64,000 bases of DNA from Thermoanaerobaculia bacterium (GTDB taxonomy: Bacteria; Acidobacteriota; Thermoanaerobaculia; UBA5066), in contig CAVVDA010000002.1 of NCBI GenBank assembly GCA_963746875.1, forward strand, positions 378,610 through 442,609, read 5' to 3'. Every line of letters starts with the position of its first letter. The stretch's first letter is position 1. The notes below the pieces were generated by a model that ran no database searches, was not told the DNA's origin, and saw only the letters and a list, made by a program, of their open reading frames with translations. Positions 42,451 to 49,694 of the stretch are shown here, piece after piece. The translations under genes and the position numbers were made by a program.

Positions 42451-42498
42451 CGGCCTAACGATATCAAGCTTGAGCGAGCTCGCTGCAGCGTTGTCAGG
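42451..42498 (-). other. integron attC site (terminal, slightly degenerate core)
   Basis: GCCTAACgatatcaagcttgagcgagctcgctgcagcgttGTCAGG; same backbone as attC at 47043; overlaps stop of cassette ORF. Confidence 0.55.
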
Positions 42499-43015
42499 TG
42501 GCAACCTCGTACTCACTTTGGACGAGGCCGCTGGCGTACTGGCGAGTCGTGACGTGCTTCAGAAGAATGTCGCGGTGAGTCACGCCAAAGAGCGGGATGC
42601 CACTGCCGATGAGCACCGGAACACGTGTGATGATGAGGCGCTGAATGAGTCCGGCCTGAAGAAACCGCTGAATGGTTATTCCGCCGTCCACGTAGGCGTG
42701 TTGGATGCCGCGAGCGGAAAGCTGCGAGACGACATCGGTCGGAGCTCCTGACATGCGCTCCACGACAGCCCCGTATGGGATGGGCGCGAGTGCGTGACTG
42801 CTCAGCACGAAGACAGGCTTCCCTCCATACGGCCACGATGGAAACTTCAGGACGGTCTCGAACGTGTTGCGCCCGATGACAAGCGCGTCGACCGAGGCAA
42901 TGAACTCGTCGTAGCCGTGAGGTTCGCCACCGCCGGGCGGCAGGAAATCGAAGCTTCCATCCGTTCGCGCGATGAACCCGTCGAGGCTCGTGCCAACGAA
43001 GACGGACGCTTTCAT
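42494..43015 (-). CDS. integron cassette ORF: dihydrofolate-reductase-like (RibD C-terminal domain) protein
   Basis: intact 173 aa; VFVGTSLDGFIA...VLSSH...GGITIQRFLQAGLI. Confidence 0.75.
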   Translation of the reverse strand: MKASVFVGTSLDGFIARTDGSFDFLPPGGGEPHGYDEFIASVDALVIGRNTFETVLKFPSWPYGGKPVFVLSSHALAPIPYGAVVERMSGAPTDVVSQLSARGIQHAYVDGGITIQRFLQAGLIQRLIITRVPVLIGSGIPLFGVTHRDILLKHVTTRQYASGLVQSEYEVAT

Positions 43016-43167
43016 TGCGGAGGCCTCCTGTTGCCGTCTAAAGATATCGTTTCAATGAAGACGAGAAAAGGGCTGTCCTCGCCGACGTGGTCACCGAAGA
43101 ATCGGGCCACAAACTTTAACGGGGTCAACCTCCGAGGAGGTGCCCCAAGCAAGGGAGGACAGCCCGA

Positions 43168-44267
43168 TGAAATCTTATGTGGGATTAGACGTTCACAGCA
43201 AGTCGAGCGTTTTCGTGATTCAGAACGAGCGGGGAGAGGAGCTGGGGCGAGGCGAGGTGCCGACCTCTGTGGAAGGGTTCTCGTCACTGCGGCTGCGTTA
43301 CAGGCTTCGCGCCTCGACGCTGGTGGCACTCGAGTCGGGGACGATGGCGTTCTTTGCGGCGCGAAAGCTCAGTGAGCTGGGGCTTTCGCCTGTCGTGGTG
43401 GATGCGCGAGAGGTCAGGATCAAGGCCCATCGGCCCCGGCAGAAAAGCGACACGCGAGACGCCGTTGAACTGTGCGAAGGCCTGCGCCGCGGCATCTATC
43501 GGGCGATCGTGCATGTGCCGCCGGAGAAGATCGAGCACCTTAGAAATACCCTCTCGAGGCGCCGCCACTTCGTTCGTCTCGGGACGGCGCAGATCAACGC
43601 GGCGAAAAAGATGCTCCGCAGCGCGGGGCTCTCCGAGCTCAGCCGCCAGCACCTCGGGACCCATCGCGCCTGGCAGCGCCTGCTTGGGGTCCTGGTTCCG
43701 CATCCGCAGGTGAGGAGCTACGTCGAGCTTCACCACCGCGCCTGGCAGACCGCGCTCGAGCAGAAGAACGCGTGCGAGAAGAGCCTCGAAACCCAGCACG
43801 CTGCCTTCGGCGAAGACCTCGAGAGACTCCAAACCGTTCCAGGAGTCGGAGAGATCGTCGCGCTGACGGCAATCACTGTCTTTTCAGACGCCACGCGCTT
43901 TCCGACCGCCAAGCATGCCTCCAGCTACGCGGGGCTCGTCCCACAGACCTACCAGTCGGGAGACACAAACCGCCAGGGCCACATCACCCGCACGGGATCG
44001 CCCGAGCTGCGCGCCATGCTCGTGCAGGCGGCCCACACGGCGCGCCGGCAAAGCAGCCCACTGAATCCGTTTCTAAGAAATCTCACGCTGCGCCTGGGGA
44101 CACGCCGAGCCGTCACCGCCGTGGCACATCGTCTGTGCCGGGTTCTTTACGCGATGCTTCGAGACAAGACGAGCTTTGATCGATCGATGCTGAAAGCCCA
44201 TGAGCCTCGTACGCCACAAGGTGCACGGCTCTATCGGCTGAAACCTCAAGCGGCGACCAGCCGCTGA
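43168..44267 (+). CDS. IS110-family (DEDD) transposase
   Basis: intact 366 aa; VGLDVHSKSS N-terminus; C-terminal YAGLVPQTYQSGDTNRQGHITRTGSPELR. Confidence 0.9.
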
Positions 44268-44487
44268 AGAACCGGAGGAAGGGAAAGCACGCCGCAAATC
44301 TTGCCGAGAATCGGGTGGATGACCCTGCTGCTGAGCTTTGGGCCCAAGAGCCCGGGATATCGTTTGGGGCGCCACCCGCTGAAGTGATACGTGGGGCCTT
44401 GACCCCGAATGGACGAGTGGCCGGCTGTTTCATGCGGCGCGAGAAAGAAATCCTCAGCGAGGGGGCTTGACAAGAATCTTCATGGGC
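44268..44487 (+). ncRNA. putative seekRNA/bridge-RNA-encoding 3' non-coding end of IS copy 1 (hypothesis)
   Basis: 220-nt non-coding 3' end; internal gatatcgttt repeats the target-flank/left-end junction. Confidence 0.3.
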
Positions 44488-44542
44488 AAGCTCAGCGGCG
44501 AGCGTAGCGAGTCCGCTGCAGCGCGTTGTTAGGCGCCGGTGG

Positions 44543-47646: not shown

Positions 47647-47670
47647 GCTGTCTAACTAGTATTAGACAGC
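47647..47670. other. mini-palindrome GCTGTCTAAC-tagta-TTAGACAGC at the 5' boundary of the cassette array (minimal attC or recombination-site remnant)
   Basis: perfect copies of the attC terminal arms with the centre missing. Confidence 0.4.
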
Positions 47671-47687
47671 CTGGGAGGTGGGCATAG

Positions 47688-48127
47688 CTAGGAGCTCTTG
47701 AGGGGGTTGTCGCTCAGGTTCCTATTAGTGGCCAGGACGGGGTGGGTAGTTCTGGGTGCGTGGGGAGGGTCGGGTTTCGGACGAACGATCCGGTTTCGCA
47801 ACCTCAGCCGCTCCGCTGCGTCGTACCTCAGTCGCCAGAGCCCTCGTTCTTTGTCCCACCACGCGCGGGCGTCGCGCAGCTTCCGGATCGCCTTCCAGTC
47901 GTCCCGGTCGATCCTCAGATACACGAGCGCGTCGGGCCTTGGGCGGCGGCGCGGAGTCCAGGGCCGTGGGAGGGAGGCCACGATTTCCACCGTCGTGTAC
48001 CTCACCTTTCCCTCCGAATCGAAGCGATAGCGCACGCACACGAGCCGTTCGCCCCAGTCGCGAGAGAACTTCCCGGTTCCCTTCTGGCCTGGGCGCAAGG
48101 TCTTGCGGACGACGCCGCGCGTCATGA
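47688..48127 (-). CDS. hypothetical protein
   Basis: 146 aa from MTRGVVRK; start ATG overlaps upstream stop (ATGA). Confidence 0.45.
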
Positions 48128-48733
48128 CCGTTTCCCCGCCGGCCGCGCGAGGAGAGCAAGGCGGCGGCCCTTGTCGGAGTCGTCCACGAGCTGCGCGAGG
48201 CGGCGCTGGCGTGTCTCGGGCTTCTTGGCGCTCATGACCCAGAACGTCGCGACCTTTCGGTACCCGGGCGGCTGCACCTGGAAGAACTCCCACGCCAGCG
48301 GTCTCGCGCGGAACGCCTTCGCCGAGGCGGGATCCAGTTTCGGCGCGCTTCTCTGCTCGAAGGAGTAGACGCCGGTGCGCTTCGCCTCGCGCGCTTCGAA
48401 CGCCCGGAGCCCCGCGGGCTCCATGCGGCCCGCCTTCCGGAGGCGTGCGACGTGGCGGATGTTGATGAGGCTCCAGATGCTACGGGGCCGGCGGGGCGAA
48501 AAGCGGATCGTCCAGCGGCCGTCGCCGAGCGAGCGGCGGACTCCGTCGATCCAGCCAAAGCACAGCGCCTCGTCGAGCGCCTGCTGGTAGGTGAGGCTCG
48601 TGCGGCAGGGCGCCTTCCTGAGGAAGCCGACGAAGAGCTCGGCCTCCTTCGCGTGGTGCTTCCCGAGCCAGCGCCGGAACGCGGCGGCGTCGTCGAAGAA
48701 GAGGGACTTCGGGGCGCTGGGCGACTTCGGCAT
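48122..48733 (-). CDS. YdeI/OmpD-associated family protein
   Basis: FFDDAAAFRRWLGKHHAKEAELFVGF ... ALCFGWIDG. Confidence 0.6.
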   Translation of the reverse strand: MPKSPSAPKSLFFDDAAAFRRWLGKHHAKEAELFVGFLRKAPCRTSLTYQQALDEALCFGWIDGVRRSLGDGRWTIRFSPRRPRSIWSLINIRHVARLRKAGRMEPAGLRAFEAREAKRTGVYSFEQRSAPKLDPASAKAFRARPLAWEFFQVQPPGYRKVATFWVMSAKKPETRQRRLAQLVDDSDKGRRLALLARPAGKRS

Positions 48734-48740
48734 GCGCGGA

Positions 48741-49694
48741 TCACGCCCCGTCCAGCGGGCTCCGGACGCCGCGGCCTCCGGTGTTGAGGACGTGTGTGTA
48801 GATCATGGTCGTCGCGACGTCGCGGTGGCCGAGGAGCTCCTGGATGGTGCGGATGTCGTAGCCGCTCTCGAGGAGGTGCGTCGCGAAGCTGTGGCGCAGG
48901 GAGTGGCAGGTCGCGAGCTTCGCGATCCCGGCGTCCGCGACGGCCCTCTTCACGGCGCGCTGGACGGCGGTCTCGTGGAGGTGGTGGCGGCGGATCTCGC
49001 CGCCGCGCGGGTCGGCGCTCTCGCGGTCCGCGGGGAAGACGAACTGCCACGGCCAGCTCTTCGCGGCGCCGGGATACTTGATGCGAATGGCGTCGGGGAG
49101 GTGGACGTCGCCGCAACCCCGCGCGAGCTCGGCGTCGTGCCGGGCGCGGACTGTCCTCAGGTGCGCCGCGAGGTCGGGCTTGAGCGCGGCGGGAACCATC
49201 GTGACGCGGTCCTTCTGGCCCTTGCCGTCCCGGACGAGGATCTCGTTGCGGGAGAGGTCGAGGTCCTTGACGCGCAGGCGCAGCGCCTCCATCAGCCTGA
49301 GGCCCGAGCCGTAGAGGAGGGTCGCGACGAGGCGCGGCTCGCCGCCGAGGCGGGCGAGGACGCGGCGGACTTCGTCGCGGGTGAGGACGACGGGGAGCCG
49401 CGACGGCCGCCGGGCCCGGACGAGCGCGGGCATCTCGGGAAAGGGCTTCTCGAGGACGTGCCGGTAGAGGAAGAGGAGCGCGGAGAGGGCCTGGTTCTGG
49501 GTCGAGGCCGCGACTCGGCCGTCCGTCGCGAGCGAGGACAGGAAGGCGTTGATCTCGGGCTCGCCCATCTCGTCGGGATGCCGTTTGCCGTGGAAGACGA
49601 CGAACCGCCGGATCCACCCGGCGTAGGCCTCTTCGGTCCGAAGGCTGTAGTGGCGCGCGCGGAGCGCGGCACGGACGCGGTCGAGGAGCTTCAT
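48741..49694 (-). CDS. intI: integron integrase IntI (tyrosine recombinase)
   Basis: intact 317 aa; block-by-block match to IntI1 including the IntI-specific insertion ([24 protein letters not shown]) and [39 protein letters not shown]. Confidence 0.9.

Follow-up and report, generated by a model that had tools for sequence, protein, structure and literature searches.

A Thermoanaerobaculia locus with the hallmarks of an inverted-type chromosomal integron, IS110-family insertions in its attC sites, and a recurrent gene between integrase and attI

Introduction

Integrons are thought to need only the integrase IntI, the attI site, and the cassette promoter Pc, and IntI recombines the folded bottom strand of an attC site with double-stranded attI at a G|TT crossover. 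Integrons in which intI faces attI form an established class: it includes the "unusual" or "reverse" integron of Treponema denticola (PMC3607928, PMC4909258) and an "inverted integrase group" (PMC3575428), which these 3 sources credit to Coleman 2004 and Boucher 2007. Current pipelines accept both orientations of intI (PMC13323075), and chromosomal attC sites of acidobacteria have already been modelled (PMC8352920). Here, we analyze a 64,000-nucleotide stretch of a Thermoanaerobaculia genome (phylum Acidobacteriota; assembly GCA_963746875.1, contig CAVVDA010000002.1, positions 378,610 to 442,609), referred to as the window, in which positions 42451-49694 hold what is, very probably, a sedentary chromosomal integron of the inverted-integrase type.

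Results

Organization of the locus

Read along the minus strand, the locus starts with intI (49694 to 48741), followed after a gap of 7 nt by a ydeI-like gene (48733 to 48122) that shares a stop/start overlap, ATGA, with the next gene, hyp145 (48125 to 47688). A 17-nt spacer leads to a 24-bp palindrome (47670 to 47647), past which lie 4 short minus-strand open reading frames (ORFs), each with a repeat after it:

48741..49694, minus strand: intI, integron integrase of 317 amino acids (aa), intact (TIGR02249, 464 bits, cutoff 265)
48122..48733, minus strand: ydeI/omdA-like gene (DUF8412 and OmdA), optional platform gene (Pfam OmdA, 3.5e-17)
47688..48125, minus strand: hyp145, small basic protein of 145 aa from a large unnamed family, upstream of attI and pointing at it
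47647..47735, minus strand: attI, with L box GTCTAAT (47661-47667), spacer ACTA, R box GTTAGAC (47650-47656), and crossover G47656|T47655
47052..47655, minus strand: cassette 1, Yip1-like membrane protein ORF (47100-47630, weak Pfam Yip1 match) with the intact attC1
45050..47051, minus strand: cassette 2, membrane protein ORF (46538-47026) with attC2, split by insertion sequence (IS) copy A
43042..45049, minus strand: cassette 3, lipoprotein ORF (44543-45022, lipobox LAGC) with attC3, split by IS copy B
42459..43041, minus strand: cassette 4, RibD_C/DHFR-like reductase ORF (42494-43015, Pfam RibD_C 1.7e-13) with the degenerate attC4; end of the array
47046-47105, minus strand: attC1, intact, 93.8 bits with the covariance model
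46485-46543, minus strand: attC2, split by IS copy A into 46497-46543 and 45044-45056
44476-44534, minus strand: attC3, split by IS copy B, with the crossover G changed to T at 43042 (TTTAGAC)
42453-42499, minus strand: attC4, degenerate, with internal deletions, 29.1 bits with the covariance model

The integrase aligns with VchIntIA (PDB 2A3V) over its full length (E=9e-91, one single-residue gap), including residues ~176-234, the integron-specific domain that alignments with XerA and XerC skip. The catalytic residues R133, K158, H264, R267, H290, and Y299 are all there, along with the equivalent of W219. An initial annotation, made from the letters alone, had already recognized this intact integrase with its additional domain, the 2 genes that follow it on the same strand (one YdeI-like, one hypothetical), and the mini-palindrome, all of which we recover, and its island of lower guanine-plus-cytosine (GC) content is borne out, the array having 0.58-0.66 GC against ~0.69-0.73 in the background. 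Its "four or more" minus-strand cassettes are right in strand and come to 4, exactly 4 attC sites being found in the window. It also had each ORF start shortly after the preceding attC and stop within its own: the starts do lie 12-21 nt past the preceding R' box, and the stop codons fall inside R'' in 3 of the 4 cassettes, that of the third being 8 nt ahead of R''.

Polarity of the attC sites

On the minus strand, the top strand of attC runs GTCTAAC-AACGC-GCT[G]CAGCGG-loop-CCGCTGAGC-TTGATATC-GTTAGAC. Because its R'' and R' boxes (GTCTAAC/GTTAGAC) are perfect mutual palindromes, the boxes alone cannot assign the strand of a site. The sites are asymmetric in 2 other respects: in the bottom-strand fold, a bulged base stands on the L'' arm at its canonical position (after R'', a 5-nt spacer, and 3 paired bases), and the spacers measure 5 nt on one side and 8 nt on the other. 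A covariance model, R1, built from 13 attC sites of the window's family and run with filters off, places all 4 sites on the minus strand and finds no further site in the whole 64-kb window, neither upstream of intI nor beyond attC4. The earlier proposals that the array runs in the direction of intI and that no cassette array lies on the upstream side, where the divergent etfBA genes flank the integrase, hold, and R1 returned no plus-strand match within the window. An Rfam scan of 38-52 kb gave no match at E<=1.

Across 80 loci fetched by IntI homology, R1 made 130 matches. In the 112 that were tabulated (14 of the 18 L001 matches, all downstream of intI on the same strand, are left out), all but 2 lie either downstream of intI on the same strand, as seen in Acidobacteriota, Eisenbacteria, Planctomycetaceae, and Nannocystaceae, or upstream of intI on the opposite strand, which is the canonical layout and is seen in Nitrosomonas, Pseudomonas, Methylococcales, Verrucomicrobia, and others. 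Since the same model calls the proteobacterial loci in their canonical layout, the polarity that it reports is the canonical one. Over 125 aligned sites, the predicted structure has 94.5% of cells paired, compensatory changes at 11 of the 16 pairs, and a covariation score of 0.30 compared with at most 0.086 for slid controls.

The polarity could in principle be the reverse, with cassettes antisense to their ORFs, intI distal to a canonical array, and attI elsewhere. The mutual palindromy of R'' and R' would suit this explanation, as would an inferred bottom-strand bulged base that is C and not G. Yet the bulge and spacer geometry is that of canonical sites, proteobacterial integrons come out in canonical orientation under the same model, every ORF stops in or just ahead of R'', the intI-proximal end carries a conserved junction with a variable right side, and the far end has neither an attI-like site nor an intI; we consider a reversed polarity highly improbable. 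We also tried to read polarity from complementarity between each cassette start and its own R'' flank, and discarded this test, which is symmetric for both orientations.

The attI site

The 24-bp palindrome at 47647-47670, GCTGTCTAATACTAGTTAGACAGC, forms a hairpin with a z-score of -4.35 and contains inverted L and R boxes 4 nt apart with a crossover at G|TT, as described for attI (PMC12614218). Upstream of it, 2 attI-proximal motifs, CTAATAGGAAC and GCTCCTAGCTATGCCCACC, overlap the 3' end of hyp145. The L-ACTA-R junction is conserved in 9 related loci: it reads GCTGTCTAATACTAG|TTAGACAGC in the window, GACGCCTAATACTAG|TTAGACGGC in L001, GTCGAATACTAG|TTAG in L002 and L081, and GTCTAmTACTGG|TTAG in L085 and L086. 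Natural variation maps the putative crossover: L086/L087 and L088 encode an identical hyp145 and remain identical in sequence up to CTACTACTGG|TTAG, after which their first cassettes differ. A separate idea, that the left arm of the palindrome had been copied from the R'' of the first cassette (window and L001), was dropped once more loci showed the consensus GmCGTCkAAT, that is, ordinary attI conservation.

The locus contains the integrase and the recombination sites that mark an integron, namely IntI with its additional domain and RKHRHY residues, attC sites, and a predicted attI at G|TT, and what defines the inverted integrase type, namely an intI that lies on the strand of the attC top strands and cassette ORFs and faces attI. 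That intI shares its direction with the cassettes is supported. Established integron biology then suggests how the locus would work. The platform operon would run from intI through the ydeI-like gene and hyp145 and end at attI (GTCTAAT, ACTA, G|TTAGAC); IntI would join the folded bottom strand of an attC to double-stranded attI at G|TT; and incoming cassettes would land at 47656|47655 in a single orientation, here that of intI. Transcription of the cassettes would probably occur by read-through from the intI operon, a separate promoter not having been found.

The layout among related integrons

The nearest relative, L001, is a Thermoanaerobaculia metagenome-assembled genome with an IntI 90% identical to that of the window, syntenic through etfBA and intI. 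Its array comprises 18 or more attCs that belong to the window's family and are co-directional with intI, and wholly different cassettes: attCs are all that the 2 arrays have in common, and the window shares no cassette protein with any fetched array. The order intI, (ydeI), hyp145, junction, co-directional attC array is found also in L002, L081-L083, L085-L088, and L089, the co-directional layout thus recurring in 9 independent related assemblies from different samples.

This recurrence bears on whether the layout could stem from faulty assembly or from a local inversion that arose recently through recombination between repeats or IS copies. Repeated attCs and 2 IS copies 98.5% identical to each other do make the array hard for assemblers. 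However, the IS copies are direct repeats, recombination between which would delete and not invert; intI, ydeI, and hyp145 are tied together by the 7-nt gap and the 4-nt overlap; and the series intI, hyp145, attI, array stands in all 9 assemblies, which excludes mis-assembly, so that we give this explanation virtually no credence.

In a neighbor-joining tree of 79 IntIs (no bootstrap; reference sequences of T. denticola, Chlorobium, and Rhodopirellula not among them), all 21 canonical loci group in one clade, and all 14 co-directional loci fall outside it. This places the window's IntI in the "inverted" part of the family, and every closest IntI relative with a detectable array has the inverted layout. 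The initial annotation had presented the layout as a rarity reported for a minority of integrons, which calls for correction: the inverted integrase type is a recognized class and, among the sampled relatives in Acidobacteriota, Eisenbacteria, and Planctomycetota, the inverted layout is the norm, not the exception.

IS110-family elements in attC2 and attC3

The initial annotation also overlooked 2 IS110-family elements that make up 2.9 kb of the array and split attC2 and attC3:

45057..46496, plus strand: IS110-family copy A, 1440 bp, transposase 45176-46276 (NF033542, 223.6 bits, cutoff 140)
43049..44487, plus strand: IS110-family copy B, 1439 bp, at the same attC position and in the same orientation as copy A

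The transposases combine PF01548 and PF02371, as in DEDD (IS110-type) enzymes, and, being encoded on the plus strand, run antisense to the cassettes. Both are intact; the 2 copies share 98.5% identity, and all 22 differences are within the first 913 nt. Both are inserted between GAGCTT and GATATC of attC (GCTGAGCTT / GATATCGTTAG) in identical orientation, and attC2 and attC3 become whole once the copies are taken out. In copy A, the non-coding region 3' of the gene (46277-46496) holds GCUGAGCUU and GAUAUCGUU, the 9-mers on either side of the insertion point, with 17 nt of hairpin-forming spacer between them; ~0.04 chance 9-mer matches are expected. The right end of the element carries TTGACA, and circularization would place it 17 nt from TTCAAT of the left end, giving a predicted junction promoter. 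These features fit a putative RNA-guided transposition of the IS110/IS1111 type (PMC11187229). The non-coding region folds no better than shuffles and has no Rfam match (E<=1).

The element differs from the IS1111-attC group, whose subterminal inverted repeats are 11-13 bp and terminal extensions 7 and 3 bp (PMC11187229): its own repeats, ATGAAGA, are 7 bp (8/9 with flanks), with extensions of ~4-6 and 2-4 bp, and its transposase is ~31% identical at the amino-acid level to any plasmid-borne IS110. Because of these short repeats and the low identity to plasmid-borne relatives, the element is filed as IS110 family with IS1111-like organization, outside the IS1111-attC group. No nucleotide match to it was found in any other fetched locus. 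Unrelated IS110-family elements occur in related arrays (L085 2863-4405; L082 10908-11471; L003 12954-13670 and 18616-19332; L173 5674-7053), and that of L085 splits an attC in the central loop, not near R'. It thus appears that different IS110-type elements have repeatedly targeted attCs of the window's family.

State of the array

Cassette 3 should be non-excisable, given the loss of its crossover G and the IS insertion. More generally, the integrase is intact and most of the array is predicted to be immobilized, because 2 attCs are interrupted by IS, one of them without its crossover G, and the last is degenerate. The locus might therefore be a decaying, inactive integron in which intI and hyp145 are retained for another role or have not yet degraded. 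Such decay would agree with damage to 3 of the 4 attCs (IS insertion in 2, one of which also has the G to T change at its crossover, and internal deletions in the last) and with an array of 4 cassettes, short beside the 18 or more of L001. Against it, the full-length intI lacks none of its catalytic residues, neither attI nor attC1 is damaged, the long and wholly different arrays of sister genomes imply that the lineage has been active recently, and the first cassette differs between L086/L087 and L088. On balance, we regard decay as rather unlikely.

Past the last attC, the minus-strand genes at 40547-42414 are tightly packed (a 128-aa membrane protein, RidA, a Cupin_5/DUF985 protein, and a His_Phos_1 protein), with GC of 0.64-0.67, below the background, and no attC between them; they may derive from old cassettes that fused, or represent a neighboring island. 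GC skew over 1-64000 is mostly weakly positive, with the cumulative skew climbing from ~24 kb. If this weak signal means that the plus strand is leading, the recombinogenic bottom strands of the attCs would be on the lagging-strand template; for large Vibrio-type arrays, the opposite strand placement has been reported.

A gene between intI and attI

The third platform gene, hyp145, belongs to a family for which a word-indexed search gave 23 relatives and a profile search 2,236 cluster representatives (50%-identity clusters) at E<=1e-3, of which 1,207 at E<=1e-10. Its members are 110-150 aa long, with the consensus PGQxGTK...YGDRLVCVRYRYD...TTVELIV...AGGxW...W.LRY...LGL..RIV, and are all labelled "hypothetical," without a Pfam domain. 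Searches of Pfam, NCBIfam, and PHROGs and a profile search of PDB gave no significant match, a lookup of the exact sequence of the window's hyp145 found no record, and no description was found in the literature. An AlphaFold2 model (predicted local distance difference test score 75.7) has 2 small alpha/beta subdomains and a disordered tail, and a fold search against BFVD gave only weak hints of DUF5710 (E 0.04-0.2).

The context of the family was followed in 80 metagenomic loci fetched by the motif [YFW]Gx[RQK]L[VL]CVRY, 55 of them evaluable (at least 1.3 kb of upstream sequence). An integron integrase is directly upstream on the same strand in 17 of the 55, upstream and divergent in 10, downstream in 1, and absent in 27; truncated divergent intI remnants lie beside L135, one of the 27, and L173, which was fetched separately. 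The co-directional IntIs beside hyp145 have their nearest neighbors in the inverted part of the tree and the divergent ones in the canonical clade. The gene stands between intI and attI in inverted and canonical integrons alike, across the 2 major IntI lineages sampled. In the canonical loci L129, L101, and L121, the hyp145 homologue is located between intI and attI and faces the cassettes; then come iterated motif arrays, a G|TTRRRY core, and cassettes with same-strand attCs. A homologue also sits just upstream of attI, co-directional with the cassettes, in the co-directional loci L137, L152, and L098. The motifs differ between loci: at least 12 copies of GCATCTAnnnnTAGATGC in L129, 5 of GGTGTCTAnTAnTAGACACC in L101, GTTCCTAnATrTAGCC in L137, and GTTTATAGATGTAGC in L152. 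Wherever attI could be located, hyp145 faces it, often across such arrays. By a crude count in a small sample, repeated 8-mers beside attI number 9.5-38 per 100 nt with hyp145 and 0.8-5 (one 10.3) without it. Among 80 IntI loci from representative genomes, 2 have hyp145, which by these gene-order comparisons is a recurrent but minority component of the platform.

We infer from its position that hyp145 may be an accessory or regulatory protein of the integron, and synteny together with motif co-occurrence makes it the likeliest candidate binder of the iterated motifs beside attI. With lambda-type integrases, an accessory role is played by arm-type sites with Xis and IHF. Tentatively, and with somewhat less than even confidence, hyp145 could be the founding example of an unrecognized second integron-encoded protein that binds lineage-specific iterons, either as an architectural or accessory factor in attI x attC recombination or as a regulator of cassette transcription. 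It is equally plausible that hyp145 is a hitch-hiker, or was once carried in a cassette, and plays no part in the integron: the gene is present in just those 2 of 80 representative-genome loci, no intI adjoins 27 of the 55 evaluable family members, and some have kinases and TIR-like genes or other recombinases as neighbors. Yet a G|TTRRRY boundary is never found ahead of hyp145, which overlaps intI or ydeI by 4 nt and for both reasons is not itself a cassette; its position and direction relative to attI are constant in inverted and canonical integrons with IntIs just 53-62% identical to that of the window; and the iterated arrays between hyp145 and attI are 2-30x denser than in most integrons without the gene, with some overlap at the low end.

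Some further contexts were noted. In L105 (2158-4567) and L149 (2743-5913), a hyp145-family gene without a nearby intI has Ser/Thr-kinase-like genes on one side and a TIR-like gene (FISYKRD motif) on the other, and in L126 and L130 one lies upstream of a different tyrosine recombinase and an IS91-like transposase; integrons are hence not the only setting of the family. Several members on long contigs (L169/L170 265-663, L172 4001-4438) are a few hundred to ~1,000 nt from the contig end, a position that a repeat-rich cassette array just downstream would explain by breaking the assembly. The called homologues P0022 (L085 1302-1802) and P0015 (L082 8001-8606) open with an in-frame C-terminus of IntI (MIYTHVLN) or YdeI (MSAKKPETRQRRLA), and the L082 ydeI matches in 2 segments that overlap (7492-7881 and 7740-8105), which hints at a frameshift; the fusions may be real or may stem from gene calling or assembly. 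As for the ydeI-like gene, it has the same place in L082, L083/L084, and L089 and is missing from L001, L002, L081, and L085-L088.

The region upstream of intI

On its other side, intI is separated from the etf genes by a short intergenic region:

49695..49798, minus strand: intI-etfB intergenic region, with a candidate intI promoter, PintI (TTGACT, 17 nt, TAAGTT), and the repeat CTTACG-gttga-CTTACG, read from the sequence
49799-50608, divergent from intI: etfB
50940-51740, divergent from intI: etfA

The region is partly conserved in L001 and L002. PintI, a candidate by its hexamers, was not called by a strict sigma-70 scan, and its -35-like TTGACT is overlapped by the CTTACG-N5-CTTACG repeat, which the initial annotation had already pointed out. 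A block of ~50 nt beside the etfB start, highly conserved in the window (49735-49798), L001 (9895-9950), and L002 (1040-1100), reads TAGCACGCCTTTCG.GCGCGTCAT.GAAAAAATGAATGGCGGCTCATT, holds the palindrome AATGA-N8-TCATT, and may be a regulatory site of etfB. In L083 (365-2560), L087 (21-2053), and L088 (3-1822), the platform is downstream of, and co-directional with, a gene for IMS (a Y-family DNA polymerase) and a small DinB_2 or glyoxalase gene; the gap from these to intI is 26-67 nt, which suggests co-transcription of the platform with a damage-response operon.

Discussion

As an integron, the locus merely adds Thermoanaerobaculia to the hosts of inverted-type chromosomal integrons, a layout that is not new. 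Several points weigh against our reading of it. R1 was trained on the window's own attC family, so that its E-values in the window and L001 are circular and independent support comes from the other loci. The textbook extrahelical base is a G on the attC bottom strand, and that of the window is a C; this variant is found in canonical-layout relatives too, the bulged base being G or C on the top strand in canonical and inverted relatives alike, and is hence not specific to the layout. A scan of 47000-49900 found no sigma-70-like site that could serve as Pc, with a consensus that may not fit acidobacterial promoters. Finally, present-day activity is doubtful, attC1 being the sole intact attC among 4.

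Two components give the locus wider bearing. The attC-targeting IS with a guide-like copy of its target illustrates how RNA-guided IS may repeatedly colonize and immobilize chromosomal cassette arrays. The gene hyp145, with its fixed polarity and iterons in both layouts, would suggest that many environmental integrons encode a further protein besides IntI that acts in recombination or in the control of expression.

With T. denticola and the inverted integrase group, the window shares a chromosomal location, a lineage-specific attC family, and transposases inside the array. It differs from T. denticola, as described, in its host, a member of the class Thermoanaerobaculia of the Acidobacteriota; moreover, in T. 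denticola and the acidobacterial L006, attI comes directly after intI, whereas ~1.05 kb of conserved operon (ydeI-like gene and hyp145) lies between them in the window. The sedentary chromosomal integron of Vibrio cholerae is similar in its integrase, VchIntIA aligning in full with the integron-specific domain included, in its near-identical species-specific attC repeats, and in cassettes that vary between relatives at a conserved chromosomal site. However, its intI is divergent from the array, it has hundreds of cassettes, and its extrahelical bottom-strand base is G, as against C in the window.

The IS copies resemble the IS1111-attC group (ISKpn4, ISPst6, ISPa25) and the seekRNA/bridge-RNA IS110 elements in their DEDD transposase and the long non-coding region 3' of its gene (PMC11187229). 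Also alike, they insert close to the R' end of attC, always at one position and in one orientation, carry short target-matching sequences in the non-coding region, and have an outward -35 at the right end that would build a junction promoter. They differ in having repeats of 7-9 bp instead of 11-13 bp, ~31% amino-acid identity to any plasmid-borne IS110, and guide-like 9-mers that both match one target strand, the guide RNA itself being a candidate one.

The attI, for its part, is laid out as the class 1 attI1, a simple L/R site with the accessory IntI-binding repeats DR1 and DR2, in having inverted L and R boxes, 4-nt spacing, and a G|TT crossover (PMC12614218), and in having upstream repeats. 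Unlike in attI1, the upstream motifs of the window (CTAATAGGAAC; GyTCCTAGnTATGyCC) bear no resemblance to the core boxes and overlap a protein-coding gene and, in the relatives of the window, they grow to 5-12 iterons.

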